Below are positions 6,529-26,279 of a stretch of DNA of 64,000 nucleotides, in pieces. Positions within the stretch are counted from its first letter, which is position 1. The number at the start of each line of letters is the position of its first letter. A model generated the notes under the pieces. The model was not told the DNA's origin. It was given only the letters and a program-made list of their open reading frames with translations, and made no database searches. The translations under genes and the position numbers were made by a program. The DNA is from an uncultured Acidimicrobiales bacterium (lineage in GTDB: Bacteria > Actinomycetota > Acidimicrobiia > Acidimicrobiales > JANYDT01), in assembly GCA_963763135.1 (NCBI GenBank), contig CAVXNJ010000002.1, positions 81,562 to 145,561 on the forward strand. Reading direction: 5' to 3'.

Positions 6529-8141
6529 ATGAACATGAACGGACTTCCTGATGCATCGCAACTGCACACATCGCGACCAGAGCCATCGCGACCAGAGGCA
6601 TCGCGACCACCGCTGCTGAAAGCCCGGGCCATCCGCAAAGTCTTCGGACCCGTGCTGGCCAACGACAACGTCGACCTCACCCTGTTGCACGGCGAGGTGC
6701 ACGCCGTTCTGGGCGAGAACGGTGCAGGGAAGTCGACGCTCATGAAGGTGCTGTTCGGCCTGTACCCCGCCGATGGCGGAACGATCGAAGTGGAAGGTCG
6801 AGCCGTCGAGATGGCGAGTCCGGCCATCGCCCGTGAGAACGGGATAGGCATGGTGTTCCAGGATCTCCGGCTCGTGCCGGCGCTGACGGTTGTGGAGAAC
6901 ATCGGGCTTTCGCTGCTCGACCGAGGTCTTCGTTTCGACCGGAAATCGCTGTCCAAACAGATCGTCGAAGCGGCCGAGCAGTTCGGGCTGGCGGCCAACC
7001 CGGCGGCGACGGTGCGGGAGCTGTCGATCGGCGAACGTCAGCGCGTCGAAATACTACGTGTGCTTATGACTGGTGCGAAGCTCGTAATCCTCGACGAACC
7101 GACGAGCGTTCTTGCTCCCCAGGAGGTCGACCAGCTCTTCGCCGGTCTCCGCTCGCTGAAGGATCAGGGCCTGGCCGTGGTCGTCATCACCCACAAGCTC
7201 GCTGAGTCACGCTCGATCGCCGACCGGGTGACGGTGCTGCGCGGGGGACGCCTGATCGTCGACGGGGCCGATCCGTCGACAATGAACAACGACGAGTTGA
7301 TCGAGGCGATGGTCGGCCGATCCGTTCAGGGATTGCCGGCCGACCGGGTGCCAACGCGCGAAGGACCGGCCCGCAGCCCTGTCACTGCGACCGGATCTCC
7401 ATCCACGATCGCCGTCGGGGCAACCTCCTCGAGGACGTGACATTTCAGGTGGAGGCCGGGGAGATGGTCGGCGTCGCGGGAGTGGCCGGTAACGGTCAGC
7501 TTCCCCTCTACGAGGTCGCCCTGGGTCTTGTCGCTCCGACCACCGGGACCCTGTCGATCGGTGGCCAACTGATCGCCAAGCCCACCCCGCAGGCGGTCCT
7601 GGCGGCCGGCGCCGTGGGTGTTCCCGAGGATCCGATCCGTGATGCTGTCGTTCCCGGACTCTCGGTCCACGAGCACGTCGCGCTCGACGCCCGACGACTG
7701 TTTCGCAAGGGTTTGAACATCGACTGGGGCAAGGTTCGGCACCACTATTCCGAGGGCAACCGCTTCAGCGAGTTGCGCGGCGCCCACGGCGACCGGCGGC
7801 TCGAATCACTCTCGGGCGGCAACATCCAACGGGTCATGTTGATACGCGCGCTTAGTGCATCGCATGCTTCGCTCGTGGTGGCGGCGTATCCGAGTCGCGG
7901 CCTTGACATCGCGACCACGCGCCGAACCCAGGAACTCCTCCTGGAAAAACGCGCCGGTGGGGCCGGCGTTCTGTTGATCTCCGAAGACCTCGACGAGCTG
8001 TTTGAGCTGTGCGACCGCATCGCCGTGTTGCACGCGGGTCGGTTGGTCGGCGTGGTCGATCCGAAGGTGTCGGACCGCTACGAAGTCGGCCGCATGATGC
8101 TCGATGCCCACGAACCGGTTGCGGCTGGCGGTGCGAAATGA
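6529..8141 (+). pseudogene. BMP-type (nucleoside/sugar class) ABC transporter ATP-binding protein with two NBDs, split by a frameshift near 7385-7400
   Basis: NBD1 has [21 protein letters not shown] and [12 protein letters not shown]2 (ORF 7437..8141) has GVAGVAGNGQ, LSGGNIQRV and LISEDLDEL. Translating upstream of 7437 in the NBD2 frame gives [23 protein letters not shown], the normal strand preceding Walker A. The two halves are therefore one gene in two frames. Confidence 0.8.
6569..6610 (+). repeat. 15-bp in-frame tandem repeat (2.8 copies) forming the regulator-ATPase linker
   Basis: CATCGCGACCAGAGC, CATCGCGACCAGAGG and CATCGCGACCAC, encoding [10 protein letters not shown] and SRPP. Confidence 0.9.
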
Positions 8142-9228
8142 CATCGACGGACGCTCAACTCACGACCGTCGGAGCGCTCTCGCACAACGAGGTCGTCACG
8201 TCGGACCGCGCCAGGGCGCTCGCCGCAAGCGACGGTCAGGTTTCTCGCGGCCTTCGGCGGCGCGCTCGCGCTGTTCGCGGTGCTCATGCTGATCAAGGGG
8301 GTGAACCCGTTCGTCGCCTACAAAGACATGGTGGTGTCGACGTTCGGGGACTCCTACCAGGTGGCCGGCATCCTCGTGCGGGCCACCCCGATCATCCTGG
8401 CCGGTCTCGCCGTCAGTGTGCCGGCCCGAGCGGGCCTCATCAATGTCGGTGGGGAGGGCCAGTTGATCATGGGTGGCGTCGCAGCGATGGGCGTTTCGTT
8501 GCTCATCGACGGCAGCCTTCCCGGCCCCGTTTCGCTGGTGCTCATGGGTCTTGCGGCGGCCGTCGCCGGTGGGCTCTGGTCAGGGATCGCGGCACTGCTG
8601 CGGTTGAAGATCGGCATCGCCGAATCGGTGACGACCCTGCTGCTCAACTACATCGCCCTCGACATCATGTACTTCCTCATCTACGACCGCTGGAAGGATC
8701 GAGCGGGATCGGGCCAACCGGCCACCCGGCCGGTGTCGACCGGTGAGCACCTGCCGCTGTGGTCCGATACCCGGGTTCACCTCGGCCTGATCGTCGCCCT
8801 GGCGTGTGCCGGGCTGATCTTCGTGCTGTTCCGCAAGACCGGTTGGGGCTTCCAGCTCCGGGTGGTCGGCGGCAACATGGAAGCAGCCCGCCGATCCGGG
8901 CTTAAGGTAAGTGCGCTTATCGTTAGTGCAATGCTCGTGGGTGGAGCCCTCGCCGGGCTCGGCGGCTTTGCCCAACTTGCCGGGGCCGAGTTCAAACTCC
9001 GATCCGGATTCCTTGCCGGTTACGGCTACGTCGGCCTTCCTCGGATCGTGGCTCGGACGCCATCGCCCCGTCGGTGTCACGGTGGCCTGCACGGTGCTCT
9101 CGGCGATCGCCATCACCGGTGACAGCCTGCAACTCGACTCCAAGCTTCCAGCGGCGAGCGTGAACGTTCTCATGGCCCTCGTGCTTCTCGGGGTCTTCGG
9201 TTTCGGCAAGAAGCGAAAGGCTGTTTAA
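8138..9228 (+). pseudogene. BMP-type ABC transporter permease 1, apparently disrupted by two +1 frameshifts (about 8150-8240 and about 9034)
   Basis: The ATG at 8138 overlaps the ATPase stop (ATGA), but it is in a frame that dies. The first TM helix (VRFLAAFGGALALFAVLMLIKGVNP) is in the 8280 frame, which has no ATG/GTG/TTG upstream of it. The C-terminus FLGSWLGRHRPVGVTVACTVLSAIAITGDSLQLD...LLGVFGFGKKRKAV is in the 8911 frame. Confidence 0.7.
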
Positions 9229-9231
9229 GCA

Positions 9232-10149
9232 ATGCTGATGCTTACGGAAGTGCTCACCGGAGGGGTCCGGGGAGGAACCTCGATTCTGTACGCCGCACTC
9301 GGTGAGTCGGTGTCGGAACGCTCGGGTGTGGTCTATCTCGGAACCGAAGGCTCGATGCTCATGGGCGCGCTGGCCGGGTACGCCGTGGCCTCCGAAACCG
9401 GCCAGGTGTGGTTCGGTGTCTTGGCCGGTGCCGCCGCCGGGGGAGCGCTCGCCGCGGTCCACGCGTATCTCGTGCTGAGCCGCGGCGCGAACCAGCTCGC
9501 GACCGGCCTGGTGGTGCTGTTTCTCGGGCTCGGCCTGACGTCGCTGTTCGGTGCGAACTACGTGCAGGCCCTGGCTCCGTCGTTTCGGCCCGTTGCTATA
9601 CCGGGCCTGTCGTCGATTCCGTTTGTCGGCACGGTGCTCTTCAAACAGGACCCCCTGGTCTACCTGTCGTTTGTCCTCGTGCCCGCGCTGTGGTGGTTCA
9701 TAAGTCGAAGTCGATGGGGCGTGCTGCTGCGCGCCGCCGGTGAACGCTCGGAAGTTCTCACCGCCACCGGCCACGGTGTGCTCCGTATCCAGTACGCGGC
9801 CGTCGTCGTGTGTGGCATGTTCGCCGGAATCGGTGGCGTTCACCTTTCGACCGCCTACACGAAGTCGTGGTTCGAGAACATGGCGCAGGGCCGGGGATTT
9901 GTCGCCGTCGCCGTTGTGATGTTCGCCGCCCGTCAACCGTTCAAAGTTGCCGCCGGCGCGTACCTTTTCGGTGCTGCCCTTGCGCTGTCTCCTGCTCTGC
10001 AGGCCCGCGGCTACGGCATCAACCAGTTTGCGCTCGATGCGGTCCCGTATCTGGTGACCCTCGGGGTGCTGATCGTGCTCGGGAAGCGGCGAACCGCCGA
10101 TCTTCCGGAAGGCCTGTCGAAGGTCTTCGAAGCGACGCCCACCACCTGA
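9232..10149 (+). CDS. BMP-type ABC transporter permease 2 (intact)
   Basis: 305 aa, polytopic. Typical motifs are LGESVSERSGVVYLGTEGSMLMGA and GFVAVAVVMFAARQP. Confidence 0.85.
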   Translation: MLMLTEVLTGGVRGGTSILYAALGESVSERSGVVYLGTEGSMLMGALAGYAVASETGQVWFGVLAGAAAGGALAAVHAYLVLSRGANQLATGLVVLFLGLGLTSLFGANYVQALAPSFRPVAIPGLSSIPFVGTVLFKQDPLVYLSFVLVPALWWFISRSRWGVLLRAAGERSEVLTATGHGVLRIQYAAVVVCGMFAGIGGVHLSTAYTKSWFENMAQGRGFVAVAVVMFAARQPFKVAAGAYLFGAALALSPALQARGYGINQFALDAVPYLVTLGVLIVLGKRRTADLPEGLSKVFEATPTT

Positions 10150-10256: not shown

Positions 10257-11547
10257 TTGCGATCACGACTTCTCATTCCCGCGGCTTTGGCCGCGCTCTC
10301 GATCCTGGCGGTGGGGTGTTCGAGCGATAAAGCCGCCGACACCACCGTCGCGGCGGAGACCACTGCCGCAGCGGCCGAAACCACGGCTGCTGCGACCGAC
10401 ACGACCGCCGCGGCAGCCACGGAAACGACTGCAGCTGCTGCCACGGAAACGACCGTCGCCGCCGCAACCGAGACCACCGCTGCGGCCGCCGCCACAGGGA
10501 CCGGCCCGGGTGTCGGATCGAAGAAGGTCGGGTTCATCTTCGTCGGCCCGAAGGACGACTACGGATACAACCAGGCGGCGTACGCCGGCAGCCAGGCCGT
10601 GAAGGCGGCGTTCCCCGATCTTGAGGTGTTGACCGCCGAGAACGTGCCGGAAGACGACAACGCGACCCGCATCATGGAGAAGATGATCTCCGATGGCGCG
10701 AAGATCATCTTCGCCACGTCGTACGGTCACCTGGATCCGGCTCTGAAGGTTGCTGCTGCGCACCCTGACGTGGCCGTGGTCCAACAGGGCAACTTCATCA
10801 AGGACGCCGTTCCGGCCAACGCTGGCACCTACTTCGGTACCGTGTACGAGCCGGTGTATCTCGCGGGCATCGCCGCCGGCAAGGCCACCAAGAGCAACAA
10901 GCTCGGTTACGTCTATGCGTTCCCGATTCCGCAGACCATTGCGAACATCAACGCCTTCCAGCTCGGGGCCGCAGTCGGTGAACCCGGCGGTCGAGACGCT
11001 AGTCGTCAACACCTCGAACTGGTGCGACCCGGCCAAGCAGGCCGAGGCCGCGAAGAGCCTGTTCGCCCAGGGCGTCGACGTCATCACCCAGCACCAGGAC
11101 TGCACCGCCACCATCACCAAGGCGGCGGAAGAAGCGGGCAAGATGGTCGTCGGCTACCACGCCGACGCCTCGTCGCTGGCCCCGAAGGGCTGGGTCGCCG
11201 GTTCCGAATGGAAGTGGGACGACCTGTACATCGACATCGTGAAGACGGCTCTTGCCGGTAACTTCACCGGTTCGAAGTACAACGCCAACTTCCGGGTCGG
11301 TTACAAAGACGGTGGTAACCCGTTCGTCCAGTCGAAGTACGGCGCGATGATCGATGATGCGACGAAGGCCAAGATCGAAGAGGCCAAGACGCTGATTTCG
11401 AGCCCCGAAGGTTCCCCGTTCACGGGACCGGTCATGGCTCAGGATGGCTCGGAGATGTTCCCGGCCGGTGTGCCCGACTACGCCACGGTCGAGTCGAAGA
11501 ACACCGTGTTCGTCAAGGGCGTCATCGGAGAAATTCCGAAGGGCTGA
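10257..11547 (+). pseudogene. BMP-family (PnrA/Med-like) ABC substrate-binding lipoprotein, +1 frameshift near 10972
   Basis: TTG start after a GGAGGA Shine-Dalgarno, lipobox LSILAVGCSS, Thr/Ala-rich linker, then VGFIFVGPKDDYGYNQAAY. The N-terminal frame ends at INAFQLGAA. The continuation SVNPAVETLVVNTSNWCDPAKQAEAAKSLFAQGVDVITQHQDC to the true C-terminus is in the 10750 frame. Confidence 0.8.
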
Positions 11548-11563
11548 CCCGTCGGATCTTGGG

Positions 11564-11593
11564 CGGGGGTGGTCGATCCACCGGCCACCCCCG
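11564..11593 (+). terminator. GC-rich hairpin after the SBP gene
   Basis: The 9-bp stem CGGGGGTGG (11564-11572) pairs with CCACCCCCG (11585-11593) around a 12-nt loop. There is no U-tract. Confidence 0.4.
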
Positions 11594-11607
11594 TGCAGTT
11601 CTGCAAT

Positions 11608-11637
11608 TTGATATCGCTTCGGCGGACGAAGTTTTAT
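11608..11637 (+). promoter_or_regulatory. candidate sigma-70-type promoter of the hydrolase/FdrA operon
   Basis: TTGATA, 18 nt, TTTTAT in an AT-rich patch about 30 nt upstream of the AAGGAG Shine-Dalgarno and the GTG at 11664. Confidence 0.35.
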
Positions 11638-11663
11638 GTGTACCTACGATGTAAGGAGTCGGC

Positions 11664-12344
11664 GTGGCCGGACCCGTTCAAGCCCAACCGTACAACTGGC
11701 CCTATGACGACGTGATCGATCCGGCCCGCACGGCGTTGCTGTGCATCGACTGGCAGACCGATTTCTGCGGCGTCGGCGGCTACGTTGATTCGATGGGCTA
11801 CGACCTTTCGCTCACCCGATCGGGTTTGGAGCCGACGGCCGCGGTTCTCGCCGCCGTTCGGACGGCCGGATGGACGGTGATCCACACGAGGGAAGGGCAC
11901 CGGTCCGATCTGTCGGACTGTCCGCCGAACAAACTGTGGCGTTCGAAGGGCATCGGGGCGGGGATCGGCGATCCCGGCCCGTGTGGCCGAATTCTCGTTC
12001 GGGGCGAACCGGGTTGGGAGATCGTTCCCGAGGTCGCGCCGATCGCCGGCGAGATGATCGTCGACAAGCCCGGCAAAGGCGCGTTCTACGCGACCGATCT
12101 TGATCTGCTGCTGCGCACCGCGGGCGTAACCCACCTGGTATTCACCGGCATCACCACTGACGTATGTGTCCATACGACCATGCGGGAGGCCAACGATCGT
12201 GGTTACGAGTGTCTCCTGCTGTCCGACTGCACCGGGGCCACGGACTACGGCAACTACGAGGCGGCCCTGAAGATGGTCACGATGCAAAACGGCGTGTTCG
12301 GCGCCGTTGCCTCGTCGCAGGCGCTGCTGGCGGCGATTGCATGA
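11664..12344 (+). CDS. isochorismatase-family cysteine hydrolase, paralog 1 (BiuH/TrtA/RutB-like)
   Basis: 226 aa. Contains ALLCIDWQTDF (Asp), [13 protein letters not shown] (Lys) and ITTDVCVHTT (catalytic Cys), plus [17 protein letters not shown]. Confidence 0.85.
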   Translation: MAGPVQAQPYNWPYDDVIDPARTALLCIDWQTDFCGVGGYVDSMGYDLSLTRSGLEPTAAVLAAVRTAGWTVIHTREGHRSDLSDCPPNKLWRSKGIGAGIGDPGPCGRILVRGEPGWEIVPEVAPIAGEMIVDKPGKGAFYATDLDLLLRTAGVTHLVFTGITTDVCVHTTMREANDRGYECLLLSDCTGATDYGNYEAALKMVTMQNGVFGAVASSQALLAAIA

Positions 12345-14146
12345 CCTCTGACACGCAAACCGTCGGTTCCATCTCAACGGCAGGCTGGTCGGTCGCGGAT
12401 CACCTCGACGCCCGGCGCCGGGGAGTCTCGGCCGAGCAGGTCATGGACCAGATCCTGGAGCAGCTCGAATCGATCGACGATCCGGCAGTCCTGATCGGCG
12501 AGCCACTCCGACACGCGGCCATGACCGCCGCCCGCGAACTCGATACCCGGGACCCCGCCGACTATCCGCTCCACGGCGTGCCGTTCCTGGTCAAGGACAA
12601 CATCGATGTGCAAGGGGTCGAAACGACGTGCGGTTGCCCGTCGTTCGCCTATGTCGCCGCGGCCGACGCCGAGGTGGTGGCCCGCCTTCGCCGGGCCGGG
12701 GCCATACCGGTCGGCAAGACGAACCTTGACCAGTTCGCGACCGGATTGGTTGGAACCCGGTCGCCGTACGGGACCGCCCGGAACCCCTTGAATCCCAGCC
12801 TGGTTCCCGGCGGCTCAAGCTCGGGTTCGGCGGTGGCCGTCGCCCGCGGCCTGGTGCCGTTCGCACTCGGAACCGACACGGCCGGTTCCGGTCGGGTGCC
12901 GGCGGCCATGTGTGGCATCGTTGGCTTGAAGCCGACGGTCGGGCGCTTCCCCTCCCGAGGCGTGGTTCCTGCCGTCCGGCGAATCGACTGCCCGACGATC
13001 TTCAGCACCACGGTCTCCGACGCCCGGTACGTCGCACGCATCATGGCGGGTCACGACAATCTCGATCCGTTTTCGAAGTCACCGGTCGCTGCGAAGTCAG
13101 CCATCGGAACGATTGGTGTACCGACGAACCTGGGTGCTCTGGTCGAGTTCATGGACGACGATGCTCTGCGTGCATACGAATCGGCGGTCGCGGAAATCGC
13201 GACCCGTTGGAACGTTGTCGAGATCGACATCGAGCCCTACCTCGAGGCCGGACGCCTGCTCTACGGCGGTCCGTTCGTCGCGGAACGAACAGCGGCCGTC
13301 GGTGGATTCCTCTCGAAGGAACCCACGGATCTCGATCCGACGGTGGCTGCGATCATCCGAGGCGGCTCGGCATACGGGGCGGTCGAAGCCTACGAAAACG
13401 AGTACCGGGTACTCGACCTGAAACGGGAGATAGCGGCGGACTGGACGGTGGTTGATGCCATTGCCCTTCCGACCATCCCGGGCACCGCGACGCTGGCCGA
13501 TGTCGAGGCCGAACCGGTGGCGGCCAACGTTCGGCTCGGAACGTTCACGACGTTCGTCAACCTGCTTGATCTTGCCGCGATCGCGATACCGGTTGGTACG
13601 CGCGCTGATGGTCTTCCGTCGGGCCTGCAGCTCATCGGCCCGGCGTGGACCGATGAGGCATTGGCTGATGCGGCCCAGACGCTGCTGGGCGAGCCGATTC
13701 CGGTCGAAGGACCCCGCGTGGGTGAACAGCTGATCGCGGTCGTGGGAGCGCACCTCCAGGGCATGCCGCTCAACCATCAGCTGACCAGCCGAGGCGCCCG
13801 ACTGGTCTCGGTGACCGCCACCGCACCGGCGTACCAACTGTTTGCGCTGCCCGGCACCGTTCCTCCCAAGCCCGGATTGCGTCGGGTGGCTGACGGAGGG
13901 CACAGCATCATCGTCGAAGTGTGGGCGATGTCAGTGGCGGACTTCGGATCGTTCACCGCGGAGGTCCCACCACCGCTCGGTATCGGTTCCGTGGAGCTCG
14001 CCGACGGAACCCTGTGCAACGGCTTCATCTGCGAACCGGGCGGGTTCACCGATGCCACCGATATCTCGCACTATGGCGGCTGGAGGGCGTACCGGGCCGC
14101 GCAGTCCGCTCCCTCCACTACGGTCGAGGCCGGAGGTGCGTCATGA
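12341..14146 (+). CDS. allophanate hydrolase (amidase-signature domain plus allophanate-hydrolase C-terminal domain)
   Basis: The ATG at 12341 overlaps the upstream stop (ATGA). Contains GKTNLDQFA and [12 protein letters not shown]. The C-terminal domain has [21 protein letters not shown]...KPGLRRV...VEVWAM...[11 protein letters not shown]. Confidence 0.9.
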
Positions 14147-14802
14147 ACGTTGAAGCTCGCCCGTTTCCCTTCGTCGCCGATCCCGCGAGCACCGCGTTGG
14201 TGATCATCGACATGCAGCGCGACTTTCTCGAACCGGGTGGATTCGGAGAAATGCTCGGCAACGACGTGTCGCTGCTTCGATCAACGATCGAGCCGACCGG
14301 TCGCGTGCTCGCGGCCGCCCGTGCCGCAGGTCTGCTGGTGATTCACACCCGCGAAGGCCATCGGCCCGACCTCACCGACTGTCCACCGGCCAAGTTGACC
14401 CGGGGCGGCACGACCTTCATCGGAACCGACGGCCCAATGGGTCGAATCCTGGTCCGGGGCGAAGCCGGTCACGCAATCATCCCGGAACTGGCTCCGGTGC
14501 CAGGGGAGCCGGTCATCGACAAGCCCGGTAAAGGGGCGTTTTATGCGACCGACCTGGAGCTGATTCTCCGGGAGCGTCGGATACGCTCGCTGATTGTGTG
14601 CGGTGTGACGACCGAAGTTTGTGTACATACAACGGTGCGTGAGGCCAACGACCGGGGATTCGAGTCCCTGGTCCTCGAAGACTGCGTGGGGTCGTACTTC
14701 CCCGAATTTCAGCGGGTTGCGCTGGCCATGTTTGAAGCGCAGGGCGCCATCTTCGCCTGGGTTGGCGGGTCGGACGATCTTCTGACGGCCCTGAGCAGTT
14801 GA
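14143..14802 (+). CDS. isochorismatase-family cysteine hydrolase, paralog 2
   Basis: ATGA overlap with the allophanate hydrolase stop. 219 aa. By eye about half of its positions are identical to paralog 1 ([45 protein letters not shown]). Confidence 0.85.
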
Positions 14803-15872
14803 GTGTCGTCATGGAGCACTTCTCGGTTGAACGTCGAAGCTTGACTTCCCGCCGGACGGTGCGCGCCACCTCTCGAGGTTCGCTGGTCCCGAGGTCGGGT
14901 GTCGACGTGCGGCTAGGCGAGGTTCGCCTGTTCACCTCCAATGCGTTGTACGTGACCACGTCCCCGTCGTCCACGTCCCCGTCGTCCACTCCGCTCTCGT
15001 CGTCCCCGGCGTCCACTCCGCTCTCGTCGTCCCCGGCGTCGTCTTCCTCGTCACCGGCGTACCTGGACCCTTCCGCGGATGTGCTCTCGCTGCATCCCCC
15101 CGGCGTACCGCGCTCTCCCTGGTCGTTGCATACGGAGGCGTGGGACGCGTATACCGACGGTGGCTTTGAGCCCGGAGACCGGGCGGTCCTGGTGAACGGC
15201 ACGTTGGTGGTGACCAGTGCCTCGGGCAACGTGGTCGTATGCGATTTCGCCGATGCCCCGGTGTGGACCAGCTCCACCGAGATGGTGCCGATCGCCACCG
15301 ACACGGCGAAAGCTGCGCTCGCCGGCCTCCTGACGTTGAACCATGTAGCCATACACGACGCCTGGGACCGCTTGGTCGGGCGCGACGAAGCGTTGGTAAG
15401 CGCGCTGTGCAATCTGTCGGTCGGCTTCGGACACGACGGCGCTGCGTCATCGGATCCGAAGTATGCGGAGGCAGAACGGGCGTTGCTCGTCGAGGTGGAG
15501 CGGCTCACCGGTTTTGGCCCGGGTCTGACGCCCGCGGGCGATGACCTCCTGGCCGCGTGCCTGGTCAGTCTGTTGCGATGGGACGATTCGATGCGCTTCG
15601 GGCGCAGCTTGGCTTCGGCCGTCGCGACGCGATTGGCAATTCCGAACGCTACCGGGTTCGTCAGTCGCCAACTGCTGCAGTTGGCCCGCCTCGGCTTCAC
15701 CCACGAAGCGGTCGACGACCTGCTGCTCGCCGTGCCGCTCGGGATGGCCGCTACGCAACAGGCGGCGGAACGACTCCTGCAGGTCGGACAGACGTCGGGG
15801 TCGGATTCGCTCCTCGGCGTGGTCTCCGCGTTGCGGGTGTACTGCAGCGTGGCTGACCGGATGAGTCGGTGA
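14799..15872 (+). CDS. DUF2877-family protein (E. coli YlbF/AllH-like) with a Ser/Pro/Thr repeat insert
   Basis: The family hallmark is [26 protein letters not shown] overlap with the upstream stop (the ATG at 14811 is an alternative start). The N-terminal low-complexity stretch [33 protein letters not shown] is encoded by 15- and 27-bp DNA repeats at about 14950-15050. Confidence 0.75.
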
Positions 15873-17470
15873 AGTCGATGAGTCAGCCCGATGCGGTCGC
15901 AGCGCTCGAAGGGCGCGTCGCCCGATCTGCCGTTGTCGTGAACCGCTACCGCGATTCGGTGGCCCTCATGCGTGTCGCGGCGGCTGCGATGGCCATCGAC
16001 GGCGTTCACTCAGTGACGGTGGTGATGGCGACCGAGGCCAATCTGGCTGACGCGGCCGAGAAGGGTTTCGCCACCGACGCTGACACCTTTGGCTCAAGCC
16101 CGACGGCGAACGACGTGTTCATCGGCGTGATCGGCGACGAGGACGCCTGTGCGAATGCGCTCGACGAGGTGCGCTCCTCCCTGTCCGGCCGCAACGAAAA
16201 CCCGGGCTCCACCAGATCAGGCCGCAACGACGCGGAACTCACGTTGCCCAACTCGCTGTCTTCGGCGCTTCATCGGGCCGGTGGCTCGGACCCTTTCGAC
16301 GCGACATCGGTGGCCGTGATTTCCGTACCCGCGGTGTTCGCTGCGGCCGAAGCCCGCAAGGCCTTGGGTCGGGGCATGCACGTGATGTTGTTCAGCGACA
16401 ACGTCGACCTGCAGGCCGAAGCCGAGCTGAAGCGGCTGGCCGGTGAACGGGGTCTTCTGCTGATGGGACCGGATTGCGGTACCGCCATGATCAACGGTGT
16501 TCCACTCGGCTTTGCGAACGTGGTGCGCGCCGGTTCGGTGACGGTGATCGGAGCCTCGGGGACCGGGATGCAGGAGGTCATGGTGCACCTCCACCGATTG
16601 GGAGCGGGTGTTCGCCAGGCGATCGGCTGCGGCGGGCGCGACCTTCACCGGTCGATAGGCGGCGCCACGATGATCCAAGCGCTGACCATGGCGGCTGCCG
16701 ATGACGGCGTCGAAGCTGTCGTCCTGATCTCGAAGCCCCCCGACCCGGACGTTCTGGTCAACGTTGCTGCGGCCGCCCGATCGCTGATCGATCGCGGTGT
16801 CCCGGTAATTCTCTCGGCGACGGGCCTTCACGCGGGCGACCTTCCCGAGTCAGGTTTCGTGGTGGCTGACAGCCTCGAGGACGCGGCCCTCTTGGCGGTG
16901 GGGCGCTCGCCCGAAGCGGTGTCGTCGGAAGCGGTGTCGTCGGAACCGGTGTCATCGGAACCGGTGTCGTCGGAACCGGTGCTCGGCGGGTCCGGGAAGA
17001 CGGTCCGGGTCGTCGGGGCCTTCTCGGGCGGTACCCTCAAGACCGAGTTCGTGCACCTCCTCAGCCGCTTCCCCGACACCGTCAGCGTGCAGGCCATCGA
17101 CTTCGGCGACGATGACTACACGAAAGGCCGTCCGCATCCGATGATCGACCCCTCGCAGCGTGACGCCGAGGTACTGCGTGCGCTTAGTGACCCCGACGTC
17201 GACATCGTGCACTTCGATGTCGTTCTCGGTTTCGGGGCATCGATGGACCCGATCGGATCATTGATGGCGCAACTCCCCGCTGTCGCCGACCGCGGACCGA
17301 CAATCATCAGCGCGCATGTTTTAGGCACCGAGCTGGATCCCCAGGGCCGCGACACCATCGTGCGTCGCCTGACCGACGCCGGCGTGAACGTCTTCGACAC
17401 CAACGCGGGCGCCGCTCGGTTCATTCGTTCAGCCGCCCCGCATATCCTGAACGCAGTGGTTACTTCGTGA
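15869..17470 (+). CDS. fdrA: FdrA-family protein (succinyl-CoA-synthetase-alpha-like fold; E. coli FdrA/AllF-like)
   Basis: 533 aa. Contains GPDCGTAMINGVPLGFANVVRAGSVTVIGASGTGMQEV. GTGA overlap with the upstream stop. Confidence 0.8.
   Translation: MKSMSQPDAVAALEGRVARSAVVVNRYRDSVALMRVAAAAMAIDGVHSVTVVMATEANLADAAEKGFATDADTFGSSPTANDVFIGVIGDEDACANALDEVRSSLSGRNENPGSTRSGRNDAELTLPNSLSSALHRAGGSDPFDATSVAVISVPAVFAAAEARKALGRGMHVMLFSDNVDLQAEAELKRLAGERGLLLMGPDCGTAMINGVPLGFANVVRAGSVTVIGASGTGMQEVMVHLHRLGAGVRQAIGCGGRDLHRSIGGATMIQALTMAAADDGVEAVVLISKPPDPDVLVNVAAAARSLIDRGVPVILSATGLHAGDLPESGFVVADSLEDAALLAVGRSPEAVSSEAVSSEPVSSEPVSSEPVLGGSGKTVRVVGAFSGGTLKTEFVHLLSRFPDTVSVQAIDFGDDDYTKGRPHPMIDPSQRDAEVLRALSDPDVDIVHFDVVLGFGASMDPIGSLMAQLPAVADRGPTIISAHVLGTELDPQGRDTIVRRLTDAGVNVFDTNAGAARFIRSAAPHILNAVVTS
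16913..16987 (+). repeat. 15-bp in-frame tandem repeat x5 inside fdrA
   Basis: GAAGCGGTGTCGTCG x2, then GAACCGGTGTC(A/G)TCG x2 and GAACCGGTGCTCGGC. Encodes EAVSS EAVSS EPVSS EPVSS EPVLG. Confidence 0.9.
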
Positions 17471-18909
17471 ACGCCGCAAACGACGGGGCCGTGCGGGTCT
17501 TCAACATCGGCGTTGAGGAATTCCGACGGGGACCTGACTCGGTCGGCGCCGAAGTTCACCAGGTCGACTGGCGCCCGCCACTCGACGGCGATCCACATAC
17601 GGCCGACGTGTGTTCGCGCCTTCTGACCGACGCCCGCGTCGACGATGCCAACGCCGAAGCGGTGGCTCGAATACTGGCGGTCGATCCGACCGTGATCGAC
17701 GTGATCCCGGCGGCGCAGGCCATGCCCGGGTTGAGCGGAAGCGGGCCGAAGCTGCTTCACGCCGGACCGCCCATCGCCTGGGCCTCGATGTGCGGACCCA
17801 TGAAGGGCGCCCTGATCGGCGCCGTCATGTACGAAGGGTGGGCCGGCACCGCTGACGAGGCAACGGCGCTACTGGCCAGAGGACATGTGGGCCTTGAGCC
17901 GTGCCATCATCACGGCGCGGTCGGCCCGATGTCGGGGGTGATCAGCCCCTCGATGCCGGTGTGGGTCGTCGAAGATCCGGCCACCGGCCGACGATCCTTC
18001 AGCAATCTCAACGAAGGACTCGGGAAGGTACTCCGATTCGGGGCCTACGAAGCGTCGGTCCTCGAACGCCTGAACTGGATGGCCACCGAGCTCGCCCCGG
18101 TTCTGTCGGACGCGATCCGCTCGCTCGGCGGAATCGCACTTCGACCAATGATGGCTCAGGCTCTCCACATGGGCGATGAAGTGCACAACCGCAACGCCGC
18201 GGCCACGGGCCAACTCCTCAAACGGCTCGCCGCGCCAATCGCCCAGAGCTCGGCATCGAGCGCTCAGTCGAGCGGACAGTCGAGCGATTCGATTGTGCGG
18301 ACACTCCAGTTCATCGGCGGAAACGACCATTTCTTTCTCAACCTGTCGATGGCGGCATGCAAGCTTCAACTCGATGCCGCGTCAGGTGTACCGCATTCCA
18401 CGCTCGTGACGGCCATGGCCCGCAACGGCGTGAACTTCGGCATCCGGGTCAGTGGTCTTGGCAATACCTGGTTTGAGGCGCCCGCGTCGATGATCGAGGG
18501 TCTGTACTTCGCCGGTTTCGGCCCTGACGACGCCAACCCCGACCTCGGTGACAGCGCGATCACCGAGACCGCCGGGCTGGGAGGGTTCGCGATGGCCGCG
18601 GCACCCGCAATCGTTGGCTTCGTCGGAGGCACATCAGCCGACGCGTTGGCCTACACCCTGCGCATGCGCGAGATCTGTGTCGCGGAGAATCCGGTCTTCA
18701 CCATCCCATCACTCGGCTTTCGCAACACCGGACTCGGCATCGACATTCGACTCGTGATCGATACCGGCATACTCCCGGTTATCAACACCGGCATCGCCCA
18801 CCGTGAGGCCGGAATCGGACAGATCGGCGCGGGCATCACCACCGCACCATTCGTCTGCTTCACCCAAGCGGCTAGCGCACTCGTCGAGGCACAATCCGTC
18901 AGCAGCTAG
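17467..18909 (+). CDS. DUF1116-family protein (E. coli YlbE/AllG-like)
   Basis: 480 aa, GTGA overlap with the fdrA stop. Conserved blocks are HAGPPIAW, GLEPCHHHGAVGPMSGV, HNRNAAATG and ITETAGLGGFAMAAAPAIV. Confidence 0.75.
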   Translation: MNAANDGAVRVFNIGVEEFRRGPDSVGAEVHQVDWRPPLDGDPHTADVCSRLLTDARVDDANAEAVARILAVDPTVIDVIPAAQAMPGLSGSGPKLLHAGPPIAWASMCGPMKGALIGAVMYEGWAGTADEATALLARGHVGLEPCHHHGAVGPMSGVISPSMPVWVVEDPATGRRSFSNLNEGLGKVLRFGAYEASVLERLNWMATELAPVLSDAIRSLGGIALRPMMAQALHMGDEVHNRNAAATGQLLKRLAAPIAQSSASSAQSSGQSSDSIVRTLQFIGGNDHFFLNLSMAACKLQLDAASGVPHSTLVTAMARNGVNFGIRVSGLGNTWFEAPASMIEGLYFAGFGPDDANPDLGDSAITETAGLGGFAMAAAPAIVGFVGGTSADALAYTLRMREICVAENPVFTIPSLGFRNTGLGIDIRLVIDTGILPVINTGIAHREAGIGQIGAGITTAPFVCFTQAASALVEAQSVSS

Positions 18910-19137
18910 TGTCCCGTAAGCCAAATTCGCTGCGTAATTATCGGCCAGCTTCGGCCGTCGCTGCCTCCGTCGGCCGGCAGGGTAGCGAAGCAGGCCCTGC
19001 GCAGATGTTGCGGTTGGGTAAAGCAGGCGCTGCCTTCTGGCGTCCCGCAGGGCTGCGAAGCAGGCCCTGCGCAGAAGTTGCGACGACCAAACCGTGGCTC
19101 GCTAATTACGCGACCGTCTTAACTTACGGGACACTAG
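18906..19137. mobile_element. 232-bp MITE-like element bounded by perfect 15-bp terminal inverted repeats
   Basis: CTAGTGTCCCGTAAG (18906-18920) pairs with CTTACGGGACACTAG (19123-19137). A subterminal GCGTAATTA inverted repeat is also present. Inside are two direct copies of GCGAAGCAGGCCCTGCGCAGA, each able to form a GCAGGG/CCCTGC hairpin. There is no coding capacity. Confidence 0.45.
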
Positions 19138-19189
19138 CTCCCGCTCGATTCCCTTGAGCTGCCGTCGGGTGCGCCGCTGACATCACCGC

Positions 19190-19903
19190 GTGCGTCGAAT
19201 CTGTAAGGCTGGTGCTGTGCCACGCCATCGTTTCGTATCATCCGTCGCCATCGGGGCGCTCGTGACCCTGATCCCGCTTTCCATCGCCTCGTGCAGTTCG
19301 TCGTCGAGCGATGACACCGTCGTCGATACTGCTGTCGATACCGTCGTCGACTCCACGACCACTTCCACCGGAGACACGAGCGCGGTGGATTCGACGACTG
19401 CGTCGAGCGCTGACACGACTGCGACGGGCGCAACCGCTGAAACAACAATCTCTCCGACCGCGGCCGAGTCGACCGTGGCCGTGGCGGCCGACGACTCTGT
19501 CAACATCGCCGGACTCGCACTCGACAGCGCGGAAACGGTGATCGTAGAAATGCTCGGCGCTCCGGACGCCAAGTCGTCGACCGTAGAAGAGGGTGCCACC
19601 GGCGAATTCGTCTCTACCTGGACATGGCCGAAGACCGGTGTGACGGCCAAGATGGCCGCCGCTTCTCCCTCCGGTCCCTTTGTCGTACGTACGCTTACTA
19701 TCGCGCCACCGTCGACACTCCGTACCGTCGCCGGAATCGGGATCGGCTCGACCGATGCGGAGGTTCGTTCCGCCTACGGTGACAGCGTCAGCAAAGAGTC
19801 GACACCTGAACTCCTGATCGTCGGCTCGGTCTTCGGCGGTCTTCTCGTGAGCGTCGCCGACGGCAAAGTGACTGAACTCTTTGTCGGAGCAGCTGCTGAA
19901 TAG
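19190..19903 (+). CDS. hypothetical lipoprotein with a Thr/Ser/Asp-rich linker
   Basis: Signal plus lipobox IPLSIASCSSS, then a low-complexity linker and a globular C-terminal domain. The start is ambiguous (GTG at 19190 or a GTG nine codons downstream). Confidence 0.6.
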   Translation: MRRICKAGAVPRHRFVSSVAIGALVTLIPLSIASCSSSSSDDTVVDTAVDTVVDSTTTSTGDTSAVDSTTASSADTTATGATAETTISPTAAESTVAVAADDSVNIAGLALDSAETVIVEMLGAPDAKSSTVEEGATGEFVSTWTWPKTGVTAKMAAASPSGPFVVRTLTIAPPSTLRTVAGIGIGSTDAEVRSAYGDSVSKESTPELLIVGSVFGGLLVSVADGKVTELFVGAAAE

Positions 19904-20028
19904 ATGCCGCGGTCGGCACAGCGCGGCGGGTGCCCGGGGCTGTTTGGTTGTCAAGGTTCGGGGTTCGGTCAGGCTTGTGCGGACACGCGGGACAGCGTGC
20001 GCCTGCCTGGCCGGGAGGTGGTAGACGG

Positions 20029-21276
20029 TTATGCAGGTGTGCGCAATCGTCTGCCCGGTTGGATGAGTTCACCAGTGTCGCGTTGCACGATGTCAACCAG
20101 GCCGTCGGGTGCGCGTTCCACCACGAGCTCGTTCTCGTGGGTATGCGGGTGATGCGGGCGACATAGCGGCACCATCTTGTCGACATCGGTTTCGCCGTGG
20201 TCGAGGTGGACTTCGTTGATATGGTGAATTTGGCATTGGTCAGCCCATACCTGGCATTCGGGGTACACACAGCGTTGGTCACGGGCGATGATTGCGAGTC
20301 GTTGAACCGCTGTAGGTTCATGTCGGGCGCGTCCGAATTTGAGGACTTCGCCATGCATGTTCTCGAACAGGTAGTAGAGCTCGGAGCGGGTTTGATCGAA
20401 CAGCGACTCGGTGACTGGGATCGGGCCTTTGCCGATCAGGGTGGCCTTCCATTGGTCCACGTTGAATACGATGATCACCGCGGGTTTCGCGGTTTGCACT
20501 ACCGTTCCCGCTACCGGGGTTGAACCGCCAACCACCCGATCATCATCGCTCGCCTGTTCGGTGGGATTGCTGTCGGTGGCGGTGTCGTAGAACGGTCGGA
20601 CACCAGCGATATCGAGTAATGCGTCGGCCATCCGTTGATCGTGACTGTCACCACCGTGCCCACCCGCGGTTCGGGCGCGTTCGGGGTGATCCTTGCGCCA
20701 TTTGGCATTCACCAACGTAGCCAGCACTTCGCGGAAATGTTTCCCGTCGACCGGTGGCAACAACCCGCGAAACGCCAGCATGCCGTCGGGGCCGTCTCCA
20801 AACCGGAGATAGCGCTGCGCTCGCTGACGTTTCGCCGAGTCATCCCCGTGCTCGGCCGCTAGCCGGAACGATTCGACCGTTACCCTGAACTCTTCCGGTG
20901 ATTGCACCACTGCAACATCCAACAGGTCCTCTGCGCCAGCCATAGCGATGACTCGTTCCAACGCGGCCAGATGTTCGGGCGAAACCACACCCCGGCCGAG
21001 CAGTTCACGGGCTCGAGCGAAATTGTCACACGTCACTGCTACCTTGCTTCGTTGAAGCGCTTCCCCCGCCGACACTCCACACGCCCGAGCAATCGCAGTC
21101 GTTTTGTCTCGCGTCTCCGGCATTCCTGCGATCAACCCGGCCATTGCTGCGTGCGCCTCACGCACGATGCGTTCCAGCTCGGCCAAGCCCGCCATGCGCT
21201 CAACCTGCGTGAATCCACTGGCGTCCATCAACGGGACGTGCACGGCGGCCCACAACGCGATTCCGATCACTTCCAT
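20029..21276 (-). CDS. DUF222 / HNH endonuclease (13E12-repeat-like family)
   Basis: 415 aa. The C-terminus has CQIHHINEVHLDHGETDVDKMVPLCRPHHPHTHE (HNH motif). The long helical N-terminal domain is typical of actinobacterial DUF222 proteins. Confidence 0.85.
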   Translation of the reverse strand: MEVIGIALWAAVHVPLMDASGFTQVERMAGLAELERIVREAHAAMAGLIAGMPETRDKTTAIARACGVSAGEALQRSKVAVTCDNFARARELLGRGVVSPEHLAALERVIAMAGAEDLLDVAVVQSPEEFRVTVESFRLAAEHGDDSAKRQRAQRYLRFGDGPDGMLAFRGLLPPVDGKHFREVLATLVNAKWRKDHPERARTAGGHGGDSHDQRMADALLDIAGVRPFYDTATDSNPTEQASDDDRVVGGSTPVAGTVVQTAKPAVIIVFNVDQWKATLIGKGPIPVTESLFDQTRSELYYLFENMHGEVLKFGRARHEPTAVQRLAIIARDQRCVYPECQVWADQCQIHHINEVHLDHGETDVDKMVPLCRPHHPHTHENELVVERAPDGLVDIVQRDTGELIQPGRRLRTPA

Positions 21277-21307
21277 CTATTCTCAACTCCCTCCGGTTTC
21301 GTGTTCA

Positions 21308-21321
21308 CAAACATATGTTCG
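21308..21321. promoter_or_regulatory. imperfect LexA/SOS-box-like dyad upstream of the HNH gene
   Basis: CAAAC-ATAT-GTTCG lies 32-45 nt upstream of the ATG at 21276. It resembles GAAC-N4-GTTC with one core mismatch. Confidence 0.3.
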
Positions 21322-21441
21322 CGTTGAAATGACCCGATGTCAATCGCGATTTCGTCGAACAGGCAGAATTCCCAGGCCGTGTCCGCAGTAATCGGCGATC
21401 GCTTCGGTCCGGCTCAGTGTTGGACCGCTAGGTTGGGCGAC

Positions 21442-21830
21442 ATGGTGATGTGGGCGCATCGAAATTCGGCAACGACACCGTAAGATTTAGGGTGAGCGGC
21501 TCGGGCGACGCTCCAAACGATCCCTTCGACAAACGTGCAAACTGCGTTACATGCGGTCGTCGAAGCCGAGGTTCCCTCGGACCAAGACGCCATCTTCGAG
21601 CGCTTCGCCGTAGCGCAGCTCTCCTCTGCGAACCCTCGGTGGAGCTGAGTCCAGTCGATCTTGGTGCTTCGTCGCGGCGGGTGAGCGGGGGCGCAGCAAC
21701 CACATACCGCAGCGAATCCAACCCCGAAGGTGTCGCTTGGCGGTTCGCCCGACCGGAGGGGCCAGCCCCCCTGGCCTATGCAGCGAAGCTGGAGCATTTG
21801 GCATGGGCGGCAGGGAAGCACTCATGCGAC
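21442..21830 (+). pseudogene. degraded DUF4259 paralog
   Basis: The DNA aligns with the intact copy at 22441 (ATGG.GATGTGGGC..., CAACGACACCG, and an identical 19-mer GGACCAAGACGCCATCTTC). It has a 1-nt deletion after codon 4, giving a TAA 9 codons later, and at least one further frame change. Confidence 0.55.
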
Positions 21831-21924
21831 TCCAACCTTCGCCGTCTTCACCGGACCTTGACAGTCAGATTCAGGCCGTCCTCGAAAGTTGAGGTCAAAC
21901 GGCGACATCTGAGAGCCTGACGGT

Positions 21925-22416
21925 ATGCGTTACGAGGTGGTCGACGAGCTGCAGCCCGGCGAAGTCGATCTCCTTTCGCGGTTGTTGGACGAGGAGTTGG
22001 GCGGTCGTTGGCAGGTCCGCCTCGGAGAGCTGATCGATGTGCTCACCCTGCCGGTGGTGGCCGCACGTTCGGACGAGCGGCTCGGTGGCGTGTGCTGTTA
22101 CGCGCCTGATGTCCCACGGTGGGAGCTCGCCCTGCTCGAAGTCTTTCCTGCGGATCGGGGCAGCGGACTGGGCGGGGTCCTCATCGACGAGGTCGCAGCC
22201 CGAGCCACAGCAGCGGGGGCCGCCGGCCTTTGGCTGACGACCACGAACGACAACATTCCTGCGATCTCGCTGTATACGCGTCACGGCTTCACCGTCACGG
22301 AGCGCCGGCTGGGCGTGATCGCGTCGTACCGAACGTTGAAGCCGACGATTCCGCTGTTGGGCGTGGCCGGGGTGCCGATCACCGACGAGCTGATCCTTCA
22401 CCGAAACCTGCCGTAG
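21925..22416 (+). CDS. GNAT-family N-acetyltransferase
   Basis: 163 aa. The acetyl-CoA motif region is LEVFPADRGSGLGGVLIDEV, followed by NIPAISLYTRHGF. Confidence 0.8.
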   Translation: MRYEVVDELQPGEVDLLSRLLDEELGGRWQVRLGELIDVLTLPVVAARSDERLGGVCCYAPDVPRWELALLEVFPADRGSGLGGVLIDEVAARATAAGAAGLWLTTTNDNIPAISLYTRHGFTVTERRLGVIASYRTLKPTIPLLGVAGVPITDELILHRNLP

Positions 22417-22440
22417 GAATGGACGCTAGGTTCGTCCGGC

Positions 22441-22890
22441 ATGGGGATGTGGGCCGCTTCGGCATTTGACAACGACACCGCAATGGATTGGGCGAGCGGT
22501 CTGAGCGCCCGTCCAGACGAGCCCTTTGGCAAACTGGAAGCAGCATTTCGTGCGGTCGCCGAGGCCGACACGCTCGCGGACCAAGACGCCATCTTCCAGT
22601 GCGTGGGAGCGGCGGCGGCTCTCCTGCACAGCCTTGGTATCTCGACCGCCAGAACTGTCCATGAGGTCGAAACCTGGGCGAAGAACCTGCACGTCCCGAC
22701 ACCCGAAATGCTCCTTCCACTTGGGGTCGCTGCCATGCGAAAGGTCAGCGCAGACCCGGGCGTCGTCTCGAACACCATCGCTGCGCCGCGTGACGTGCTC
22801 CTCCTGGCTCGGCCTATTGGTCAAACTCGAATCGCAATTGTCCGGAGCAGCTCACCCCGCCGCCTCCGTCGATCGGTCAACGATCGATAG
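22441..22890 (+). CDS. DUF4259-family protein
   Basis: The N-terminal hallmark is MGMWAASAFDNDTAMDW. 149 aa. Confidence 0.6.
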   Translation: MGMWAASAFDNDTAMDWASGLSARPDEPFGKLEAAFRAVAEADTLADQDAIFQCVGAAAALLHSLGISTARTVHEVETWAKNLHVPTPEMLLPLGVAAMRKVSADPGVVSNTIAAPRDVLLLARPIGQTRIAIVRSSSPRRLRRSVNDR

Positions 22891-23033
22891 GTCAACCGAT
22901 GATCGAAAAGTCACGCCTGAACCGGCAACTCCGAAGCCGCGACGGCCAAGCGCAACAGAACGACTGATCGGCGGGTGGATGCGTTTGAAGACCGATCCTG
23001 AGTGCGTGGCCTATTGCGTGGCCGAAGCCCGAG

Positions 23034-23357: not shown

Positions 23358-23377
23358 CGCACGGCGAAACGGAGACC

Positions 23378-23885: not shown

Positions 23886-23924
23886 CTGGAGCGAAGAAGA
23901 ATCTGGAACAAATTCCGGGCTACC

Positions 23925-23951
23925 TGTCGATTCCGGGGTACAACGTTCGTT
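23925..23951 (+). promoter_or_regulatory. candidate ECF-type promoter for the DGPF/sigma operon
   Basis: TGTCGA, 17 nt, CGTT about 55 nt upstream of the ATG at 24004. A GGAAC-N16-GTCGA alternative overlaps at 23905-23930. Confidence 0.3.
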
Positions 23952-24003
23952 GTGGTGTCGAGGCCGGCAATCGTGCGGGTCGCACCAACCAAGGAGATCT
24001 GAA

Positions 24004-24363: not shown

Positions 24364-24371
24364 CGCAAACC

Positions 24372-25793: not shown

Positions 25794-25811
25794 CCGACGT
25801 AGACTGGTCGC

Positions 25812-26276: not shown

Positions 26277-26279
26277 TCC

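Follow-up and report, generated by a model that had tools for sequence, protein, structure and literature searches.

Which reaction could unite, in one operon, hydrolases of the biuret/triuret type and a protein complex related to the oxamate carbamoyltransferase of Escherichia coli? This question is raised by a block of six genes, located at positions 11664-18909 on the + strand of a 64,000-nucleotide (nt) stretch of DNA from an uncultured Acidimicrobiales bacterium (GenBank assembly GCA_963763135.1, contig CAVXNJ010000002.1, positions 81,562 to 145,561 of the forward strand), the whole of which is referred to hereafter as the window. The block encodes successively a biuret hydrolase of the BiuH type, the allophanate hydrolase AtzF, a triuret hydrolase of the TrtA type, and three subunits of the DUF2877, FdrA and DUF1116 families, named here AllH, AllF and AllG (collectively AllHFG). 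All the components of the operon belong to known families, and it is their association that calls for an explanation. On balance, the block is probably a single operon that mineralises triuret and biuret as a nitrogen source, in which AllHFG would phosphorolyse an acyl-ureide derived from triuret, most likely carboxybiuret, and not oxalurate, the only known substrate of such an enzyme.

The six co-directional open reading frames (ORFs) encode proteins of 226, 601, 219, 357, 533 and 480 amino acids (genes 1 to 6), and have exactly the coordinates given by an earlier examination of the DNA letters, hereafter the sequence-only reading, whose six gene identities were confirmed by profile searches with hidden Markov models (Pfam, NCBIfam). 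That reading had also described all five junctions as 4-nt overlaps of a start and a stop codon, and the ORF coordinates agree: ATGA at 12341 and 14143, TTGA at 14799, and GTGA at 15869 and 17467. The overlaps at the starts of genes 4 and 5 are plausible rather than certain, because in-frame ATG codons occur nearby, at 14811 in gene 4 (12 nt downstream) and at 15878 in gene 5 (9 nt downstream), but the genes are at most about 10 nt apart whichever start is used. Terminator-like sites do not exceed the chance expectation within the block. The reading frames of all six genes are intact over 7.2 kb, and the ratio of nonsynonymous to synonymous substitution rates (dN/dS), calculated against a metagenome contig carrying the same block (L001), amounts to 0.06-0.28 for all six, indicative of purifying selection, these values being obtained at a synonymous divergence (dS) of about 1.0-1.4 that is close to saturation.

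Gene 1 (11664-12344) encodes an isochorismatase-like cysteine hydrolase, which matches the Isochorismatase family PF00857 (141 bits) and the NCBIfam BiuH equivalog model NF050097 (411 bits, cut-off 370), and whose top match in the PDB is the BiuH of Herbaspirillum (6XJM, 395 bits). The equivalents of D24, K129 and C162, which form the Asp-Lys-Cys triad, are present. TrtA and BiuH are distinguished by residues that read, in TrtA numbering and with the TrtA residue first, F35/Y, N41/Y, A134/S, E160/D, Y187/T and I205/V, the residue Q202 being shared (PMC7948467). Gene 1 is of the BiuH type at five of these six positions (Y35, Y41, D160, T187, V205); at the sixth, position 134, it possesses an Ala residue, as does the BiuH of Herbaspirillum. 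In a bootstrapped neighbour-joining (NJ) tree rooted on RutB, the BiuH clade comprising gene 1 is recovered in 100 of 100 replicates, and by homology and signature residues gene 1 is predicted to be a BiuH-type biuret amidohydrolase. Gene 2 (12341-14146) combines an amidase domain (PF01425) with an AH_C domain (PF21986), exceeds the cut-off of model TIGR02713 (684 versus 511 bits), and displays a GGSSSG motif at residue 157 and the lysine of a KDN motif at residue 85, all of which characterize it, on sequence grounds, as a full-length AtzF.

Gene 3 (14143-14802) encodes the second isochorismatase-like cysteine hydrolase. Its top PDB match is TrtA (6XIX, 274 bits, 61% identity), it stays below the cut-off of the BiuH equivalog model (276 bits, cut-off 370), and it carries every TrtA discriminator, namely F35, N41, A134, E160, Y187, Q202 and I205. 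In the NJ trees it is placed outside the BiuH clade, among the TrtA-type sequences, so that the two paralogs segregate, gene 1 with BiuH and gene 3 with the TrtA-type group. A first NJ tree had hinted at a distinct sister family of TrtA for gene 3; this idea was dropped, since the TrtA-type proteins linked to AllHFG separate from the TrtA of Herbaspirillum in only 2 of 100 bootstraps (NJ, rooted on RutB). An identity as nicotinamidase or isochorismatase was rejected for both genes 1 and 3, the corresponding models giving at most 36 bits versus several hundred for BiuH/TrtA. Gene 3 is consequently best regarded, from its signature residues and homology, as a predicted triuret hydrolase of the TrtA type. 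The two paralogs are 54-55% identical, in line with the estimate of about one half made by eye in the sequence-only reading, which had also correctly recognized the Asp, Lys and Cys catalytic positions in both proteins. In all these respects, the first half of the block resembles the pathway of Herbaspirillum sp. BH-1 and Rhizobium leguminosarum (PMC7948467), in which TrtA- and BiuH-type hydrolases of about 50% identity, with the same catalytic triad and the same discriminating residues, are encoded in one operon with a full-length AtzF. However, unlike that pathway, the operon of the window adds AllH-AllF-AllG, packed behind TrtA, lacks a gene for the TrtB decarboxylase, and has an ATP-binding cassette (ABC) importer of the Bmp/Nup type upstream.

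The three remaining genes encode together members of the FdrA, DUF1116 and DUF2877 families, i.e., the three subunits expected of an AllFGH-type complex. Gene 4 (14799-15872), the AllH/DUF2877-type subunit, matches PF11392 over residues 236-344 and shares the motifs GxGxGLTPxGDD and SGxD with both AllH and YahE from E. coli. Gene 5 (15869-17470), the AllF/FdrA-type subunit, resembles the α-subunit of succinyl-CoA synthetase (Pfam CoA_binding and Ligase_CoA); it scores 347 bits with the NCBIfam FdrA model NF004760, under the cut-off of 433, matches the FdrA structure 3DMY of the PDB (E = 2.7e-69), and is 36% identical to YahF and 35% to AllF. Gene 6 (17467-18909), the AllG/DUF1116-type subunit, matches PF06545 (306 bits) and the PDB structure 3CLQ (E = 1.8e-116), with an identity of 50% to E. 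coli AllG and 45% to YahG. Each of the three genes contains short in-frame tandem repeats encoding Ser/Pro-rich or Ser-rich stretches: an insert at 14956-15047 of gene 4 (Ser/Pro-rich, periods of 27 and 15 nt), which is specific to this lineage and missing from all the compared homologs, a 15-nt repeat at 16913-16989 of gene 5, and a repeat with a period of 12 nt at 18256-18286 of gene 6.

By sequence, genes 4-6 are about equidistant from the All and Yah paralogs of E. coli. They share with AllFGH/AllK (PMC11326118) the FdrA, DUF1116 and DUF2877 families, with 35-50% identity for the F and G subunits, but they do not form with AllFGH a set of orthologs of the same clade and the same order: their order is H-F-G, gene 6 has an N-terminal extension of roughly 55 residues compared to E. 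coli AllG, and in the AllG tree its clade, the one linked to TrtA or AtzD, stands apart from both E. coli AllG and YahG (NJ, no support values). The likeness to FdrA/YlbE/YlbF (AllF/G/H) put forward by the sequence-only reading needs to be amended in this respect, since the order H-F-G fits yahEFG and not allFGH. The uncharacterised cluster yahE-yahF-yahG-yahI displays the same DUF2877-FdrA-like-DUF1116 order, with carbamate kinase as the next gene in relatives, and YahG and AllG have similar lengths. Unlike the window, however, the yah cluster contains an amidohydrolase, YahJ, and not a TrtA-type hydrolase; the identities reach 36-45%, and YahG falls in another NJ clade. An AllG group of the NJ tree linked to xanthine dehydrogenase and PucR is also apart from the TrtA/AtzD-linked clade. 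As a separate observation, an AllF/AllG clade occurring in Firmicutes, Spirochaetes and Anaeromyxobacter (L056, L060, L061, L073, L075, L078) has xanthine dehydrogenase subunits, xanthine/uracil permeases, PucR regulators and a putative cyclase as neighbours, which suggests another, purine-linked role for the family.

The genes that accompany AllHFG were compared across other organisms. One genome per species was scanned with an AllG alignment and 80 loci, the best matches to the queries, were annotated by tblastn and Pfam; the counts refer to the 43 loci from GTDB-representative genomes in which allG is flanked by 6 kb or more on either side. A TrtA-type gene occurs in 30 of these 43 loci and an AtzD-family gene in six, either partner being present in 36 and both in none (Fisher one-sided p = 0.0003, a value which, like the other Fisher p-values given here, overstates the evidence because the surveyed loci are best matches to the queries and phylogenetically non-independent). 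The AtzD-family gene beside AllFG in L050, the only one tested, reaches 551 bits with the cyanuric acid amidohydrolase equivalog, versus a cut-off of 360. Carbamate kinase is encoded in 34 of the 43 loci. A stand-alone AH_C protein (131 amino acids, PF21986) occurs in 24 and a full AtzF in six, never together (p = 0.004); when small ORFs were clustered over the 160 or so genome and metagenome loci taken together, AH_C was the only recurrent small gene. Among the 30 TrtA-positive loci, 29 possess the kinase, 29 possess AH_C or AtzF, and three possess BiuH. The co-directional arrangement TrtA-H-F-G-kinase-AH_C-permease recurs in Serratia, Burkholderia, Caballeronia, Aeromonas, Vibrio, Chryseobacterium and Dyella, and differently ordered versions of this gene set are found in Mycobacterium pinniadriaticum, in Chloroflexota and in other metagenome-assembled genomes (MAGs). 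All the TrtA-type proteins adjoining AllHFG carry the full active-site and second-shell signature of TrtA, A or S being allowed at position 134 and I or L at position 205.

A reverse survey, in which metagenome contigs were scanned with a TrtA-type alignment and loci were picked regardless of AllHFG, yielded 16 TrtA-type loci with at least 5 kb of flanking sequence on each side: AllF/G is present in nine and BiuH in five, but the two never occur in the same locus (Fisher one-sided p = 0.005, indicative only). These figures indicate that AllHFG(-kinase-AH_C) and BiuH(-AtzF) behave as alternative downstream partners of TrtA. As judged from gene neighbourhoods, the conserved unit is TrtA (or AtzD) together with AllHFG(-carbamate kinase-AH_C), to which BiuH-AtzF is added less often. 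The sequence-only reading, by grouping the second hydrolase with BiuH and AtzF, had thus misplaced the boundary between the modules, since the conserved partner of TrtA across phyla is AllH-AllF-AllG (30/43 loci). On the other hand, its suggestion that the FdrA complex could perform a carbamoyl transfer or cleavage on a carbamoylated, nitrogen-rich compound related to biuret and triuret finds support in the comparative genomics of both surveys.

In addition, a membrane protein of about 540 amino acids, devoid of any Pfam or NCBIfam match, adjoins TrtA-type genes (e.g., L035:13215-14834) in some two dozen of the genome loci and numerous metagenome contigs (L004-L079, L086-L165), and is a candidate triuret/ureide permease. 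An NCS1 permease (Transp_cyt_pur) replaces it in Enterobacteriaceae and Burkholderia.

A common reaction scheme can be proposed for the whole block. By homology and signature residues, the TrtA-type protein would convert triuret to carboxybiuret and NH3, the BiuH-type protein would convert biuret to allophanate and NH3, and AtzF would release NH3 and CO2 from allophanate. Genes 4-6 would constitute a carbamoyltransferase of the same type as the oxamate carbamoyltransferase of E. coli, operating outside allantoin catabolism, with phosphate cleaving the terminal carbamoyl group off an acyl-ureide made from triuret. Carboxybiuret (H2N-CO-NH-CO-NH-COO-) and oxalurate (H2N-CO-NH-CO-COO-) are close analogues, and TrtA and cyanuric acid hydrolase both form carboxybiuret. 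It is proposed as the substrate of AllHFG for these two reasons, i.e., as the closest analogue of oxalurate and as the product shared by both partner enzymes. The reaction would read carboxybiuret + Pi → carbamoyl phosphate + allophanate (Pi, inorganic phosphate), modelled on oxalurate + Pi → carbamoyl phosphate + oxamate, the presumed chemistry being in both cases the phosphorolysis of an N-acyl-urea to carbamoyl phosphate; for E. coli AllFGH, the reaction oxamate + carbamoyl phosphate ↔ oxalurate + Pi has been reported (PMC11326118). Allophanate or biuret are alternative candidate substrates.

This scheme would account for the composition of the loci. Because the AtzD-family gene of L050 passes the cyanuric acid amidohydrolase model, two unrelated enzymes producing carboxybiuret would alternate beside the same AllHFG clade, and the cleavage of carboxybiuret would explain why AH_C/AtzF is near-obligatory, why a kinase (forming ATP) is present, and why BiuH is dispensable. 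In most genomes, TrtA-AllHFG is accompanied by the kinase and a stand-alone AH_C, a set that appears to take the place of the hydrolytic BiuH-AtzF route and that would yield ATP, whereas the operon of the window is a rare hybrid carrying both routes, in which carbamoyl phosphate would enter biosynthesis or be used by a kinase whose gene lies elsewhere in the genome. More tentatively, and with somewhat less confidence than we would need to prefer it, the AllHFG clade as a whole may be a carbamoyltransferase of carboxybiuret (and/or allophanate or biuret) rather than an oxalurate enzyme, serving, along with TrtA or cyanuric acid hydrolase, carbamate kinase and a stand-alone AH_C domain, a widespread and hitherto unrecognised phosphorolytic route for triuret and cyanuric acid, which would conserve ATP and be an alternative to BiuH-AtzF. 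The established routes for triuret, biuret and cyanuric acid are purely hydrolytic.

Several points weigh against a phosphorolytic triuret operon. The substrate of AllHFG is deduced solely from gene neighbourhoods and chemical analogy, and oxalurate stays a candidate because gene 6 still shares 50% identity with the genuine AllG of E. coli. The decarboxylation of N-carboxycarbamate is the reaction assigned to the AH_C domain of AtzF, and the role of a stand-alone AH_C is left unexplained by the simple conversion of carboxybiuret to carbamoyl phosphate and allophanate. The window lacks the carbamate kinase which 29 of the 30 TrtA-linked loci carry, and three transporter genes look frameshifted, which could compromise the function of the locus in this genome. 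Furthermore, the trees are of the neighbour-joining type, in which the sub-clades within the TrtA-type group have no bootstrap resolution when rooted on RutB, and the Fisher tests suffer from the relatedness of the loci mentioned above.

The most serious competitor is a pair of independent, neighbouring pathways, one hydrolysing triuret and biuret (TrtA, BiuH, AtzF) and the other degrading oxalurate by a genuine AllHFG, the co-regulation of the two being explained by the common origin of their substrates in oxidative purine breakdown. It has been published as such: a paper of 2025 reported that trtA-biuH-atzF-bmpA-nupABC adjoins allFGHK in comammox Nitrospira and ammonia-oxidising archaea, and interpreted the two modules as separate pathways, for triuret/biuret and for oxalurate (PMC12625717). 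The window shares with these comammox and archaeal contigs the collocation of both modules with a Bmp/Nup ABC transporter and a GntR regulator; however, the modules of those contigs form separate gene blocks and include a carbamate kinase, whereas the six genes of the window, in an actinobacterial lineage, are overlap-coupled in the order BiuH-AtzF-TrtA-H-F-G and kinase-less. This interpretation can also rely on the experimental demonstration that E. coli AllFGH is an oxamate carbamoyltransferase (PMC11326118), on the 50% identity of gene 6 with E. coli AllG, and on the Pfam family names, which derive from that activity. Four observations make it nevertheless rather unlikely. Near the 80 genome loci, no homolog of AllC or AllE and a single weak match to AllD were found, and the absence of allantoin and ureidoglycolate genes beside these clusters weakens the oxalurate reading. 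The partner of the AllHFG clade is specifically of the TrtA or AtzD type in 36 of 43 loci. In loci anchored on TrtA, AllHFG and BiuH are mutually exclusive, which suggests a substitution within one pathway. Finally, AH_C/AtzF is nearly obligatory beside the cluster, and the cleavage of oxalurate would need neither.

It is distinctly unlikely that the TrtA-type protein acts on another small amide, either producing oxalurate (e.g., from oxaluramide) or removing oxamate (to oxalate and NH3), as an accessory of an AllHFG that would stay an oxalurate enzyme. The tight linkage of TrtA-type and AllHFG genes, mostly in loci devoid of BiuH, would fit such a role, as would the identity of just 61% between gene 3 and the characterised TrtA and the many small amides accepted by isochorismatase-like hydrolases. 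However, the residues responsible for TrtA specificity, both substrate-contacting and second-shell, are kept in all members (with A/S at 134 and I/L at 205), the TrtA of Herbaspirillum is not set apart as a separate clade (2/100 bootstraps), and the replacement of the hydrolase by a cyanuric acid hydrolase in six loci points to carboxybiuret as the shared intermediate.

Why, then, does the operon of the window lack a kinase? As the sequence-only reading had noted, the window contains no carbamate kinase (tblastn over the 64 kb, queried with AllK and YahI from E. coli), no AtzD-family cyanuric acid hydrolase (tblastn) and no urea carboxylase, the sole ORF of more than 1000 amino acids encoding an HD/PA14/NHL protein. 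AllC, AllD and AllE have no matches in the window either, which thus differs from E. coli AllFGH-AllK both by the absence of the kinase and by that of nearby allantoin genes. The same overlap-coupled block BiuH-AtzF-TrtA-H-F-G occurs in two metagenome contigs (L001 and L002) and in an Acidimicrobiia MAG (L003), and the nearest named relatives are Acidimicrobiia/Acidimicrobiales MAGs. The window is 79% identical to L001/L002 in AllG and 100% identical in ribosomal protein S15. In L003, the genes also overlap by 4 nt and a carbamate kinase gene overlaps allG by 4 nt. Since L003 has a kinase and the other three have none, the kinase appears to have been lost in the lineage of the window, L001 and L002. 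Among comammox Nitrospira, two loci (L043, L048) carry H-F-G-K, BiuH, TrtA and AH_C in separate blocks, in agreement with the description in PMC12625717.

The region downstream of gene 6 differs from that of the relatives. An inverted-repeat element of about 258 nt (18893-19150) lies directly after the stop codon of gene 6. Its arms (18893-18943 and 19100-19150) share the perfect core CTAGTGTCCCGTAAG / CTTACGGGACACTAG and enclose two 47-nt direct repeats, each with its own palindrome; it has no Rfam match and may be a compound terminator or an insertion resembling a miniature inverted-repeat transposable element. It marks the left edge of a segment of about 8.8 kb (18910-27705) missing from L001 and L002, in which an aldo-keto reductase gene, located at 27706 in the window, adjoins allG directly. 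The segment encodes a DUF222 protein (20029-21276, minus strand), a GNAT acetyltransferase, a DUF6596/TPR fragment, a MarR regulator and an MFS_3 transporter, and may be an insertion at the place where relatives such as L003 have the carbamate kinase. It also contains a tandem array (23377-23878) in which a 60-nt unit is repeated 8.3 times (90% matches), with an internal hairpin GCCGTAGA...TCTACGGC in every unit. The array has no Rfam match; its minus-strand translation does not look genuine, and it is unlike clustered regularly interspaced short palindromic repeats (CRISPR), since whole units are repeated. Two further repeats of about 150 nt (21452-21603 and 22452-22602), situated 1000 nt apart and 71-76% identical, cover the ends of adjacent ORFs in the surroundings of the GNAT gene. 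A search for Rfam families over the region 11400-24200 gave no match.

Upstream of the block, a GntR regulator and an ABC system of the Bmp/Nup type, all on the + strand, represent a conserved regulator and importer. A GntR/FCD regulator reads through, with no intervening stop, into a NupA-type double-ABC ATPase (5779-8141): the Pfam domains GntR, FCD and ABC_tran occur in the ORF 5779-7440 and a second ABC_tran domain in the ORF 7437-8141, the ATPase being split across two frames near 7437, whereas its ortholog in L001 is a single ABC protein of 543 amino acids. Permease 1 (BPD_transp_2, 8238-9222), examined by tblastn and DNA alignment, has a single-base insertion near 9032 compared to L001, the permease of which matches in frame 3 (8238-9032) and then in frame 1 (8956-9222). 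Permease 2 (BPD_transp_2 by Pfam, 9232-10149) is intact and 97% identical to its L001 ortholog over the full length, with a dN/dS of 0.02. The substrate-binding protein of the Bmp/PnrA type (10257-11547) shows a single-base insertion near 10972 relative to L001, its Bmp match in Pfam being divided between two frames and the tblastn match passing from frame 3 to frame 1. Three of the four ABC-transporter genes are thus disrupted compared to intact L001 orthologs, with at least three frameshifts in 5.7 kb and none in about 17 kb of other genes syntenic with L001; these frameshifts are either real pseudogenes or local assembly errors.

Between the transporter and gene 1, the sequence-only reading had noticed a hairpin and an AT-rich, promoter-like patch. 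The hairpin is indeed present as a G+C-rich stem of 13 bp (about 11563-11594, + strand; the RNA fold of 11545-11665 has -49.8 kcal/mol and z = -2.25), and a scan for terminator-like sites detected another, smaller stem-loop, which has a U-run (11616-11632, + strand). The patch, too, is real, the region 11596-11663 having 47% G+C compared to 64% for the whole window, and it contains a Shine-Dalgarno sequence, AAGGAG (11653-11658, + strand), 5 nt before the GTG start of gene 1. However, a scan for a sigma-70 consensus promoter upstream of gene 1 on the + strand found none, so that the term promoter-like reflects base composition alone.

It is very improbable that AllHFG, possibly along with the entire locus, persists in this genome as a decaying remnant: the missing kinase (coupled to allG in L003), the transporter genes with their three or more frameshifts in 5.7 kb (none in about 17 kb of other syntenic genes), the in-frame tandem repeats in genes 4, 5 and 6, and the 8.8-kb downstream insertion would be consistent with decay, but the frames of all six genes are intact over 7.2 kb, their dN/dS remains at 0.06-0.28 against L001, itself kinase-less, the catalytic and family motifs are kept, and the frameshifts could be assembly errors.

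Compared with published work, the side-by-side collocation of the two modules is not new, which corrects the sequence-only reading, to which no described pathway fusing them in one coupled operon was known. In the literature searched, subscription journals not being covered, both modules were mentioned together in PMC12625717 only, and no proposal of AllHFG acting on a triuret-derived intermediate was found. What is new is the recognition of TrtA (or AtzD) with AllHFG as a conserved unit, the evidence for its alternation with BiuH, and the substrate hypothesis that results from both.

Cyanuric acid is the hub of s-triazine herbicide degradation. Triuret and biuret occur as impurities of urea fertilisers, and triuret and cyanuric acid are also formed by oxidative purine breakdown (PMC7948467). 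If AllHFG does cleave a ureide derived from triuret to carbamoyl phosphate, the new transcarbamoylase family of which E. coli AllFGH is the sole characterised member would gain a second, probably wider, physiological function, and many genes annotated for oxalurate catabolism, or as the acyl-CoA synthetase FdrA, would belong instead to users of triuret or cyanurate. The hosts would range from Serratia, Burkholderia, Aeromonas and Vibrio to mycobacteria, Chloroflexota and comammox Nitrospira, and the degradation of condensed ureas could provide them with ATP, or supply carbamoyl phosphate to the synthesis of arginine and pyrimidines.

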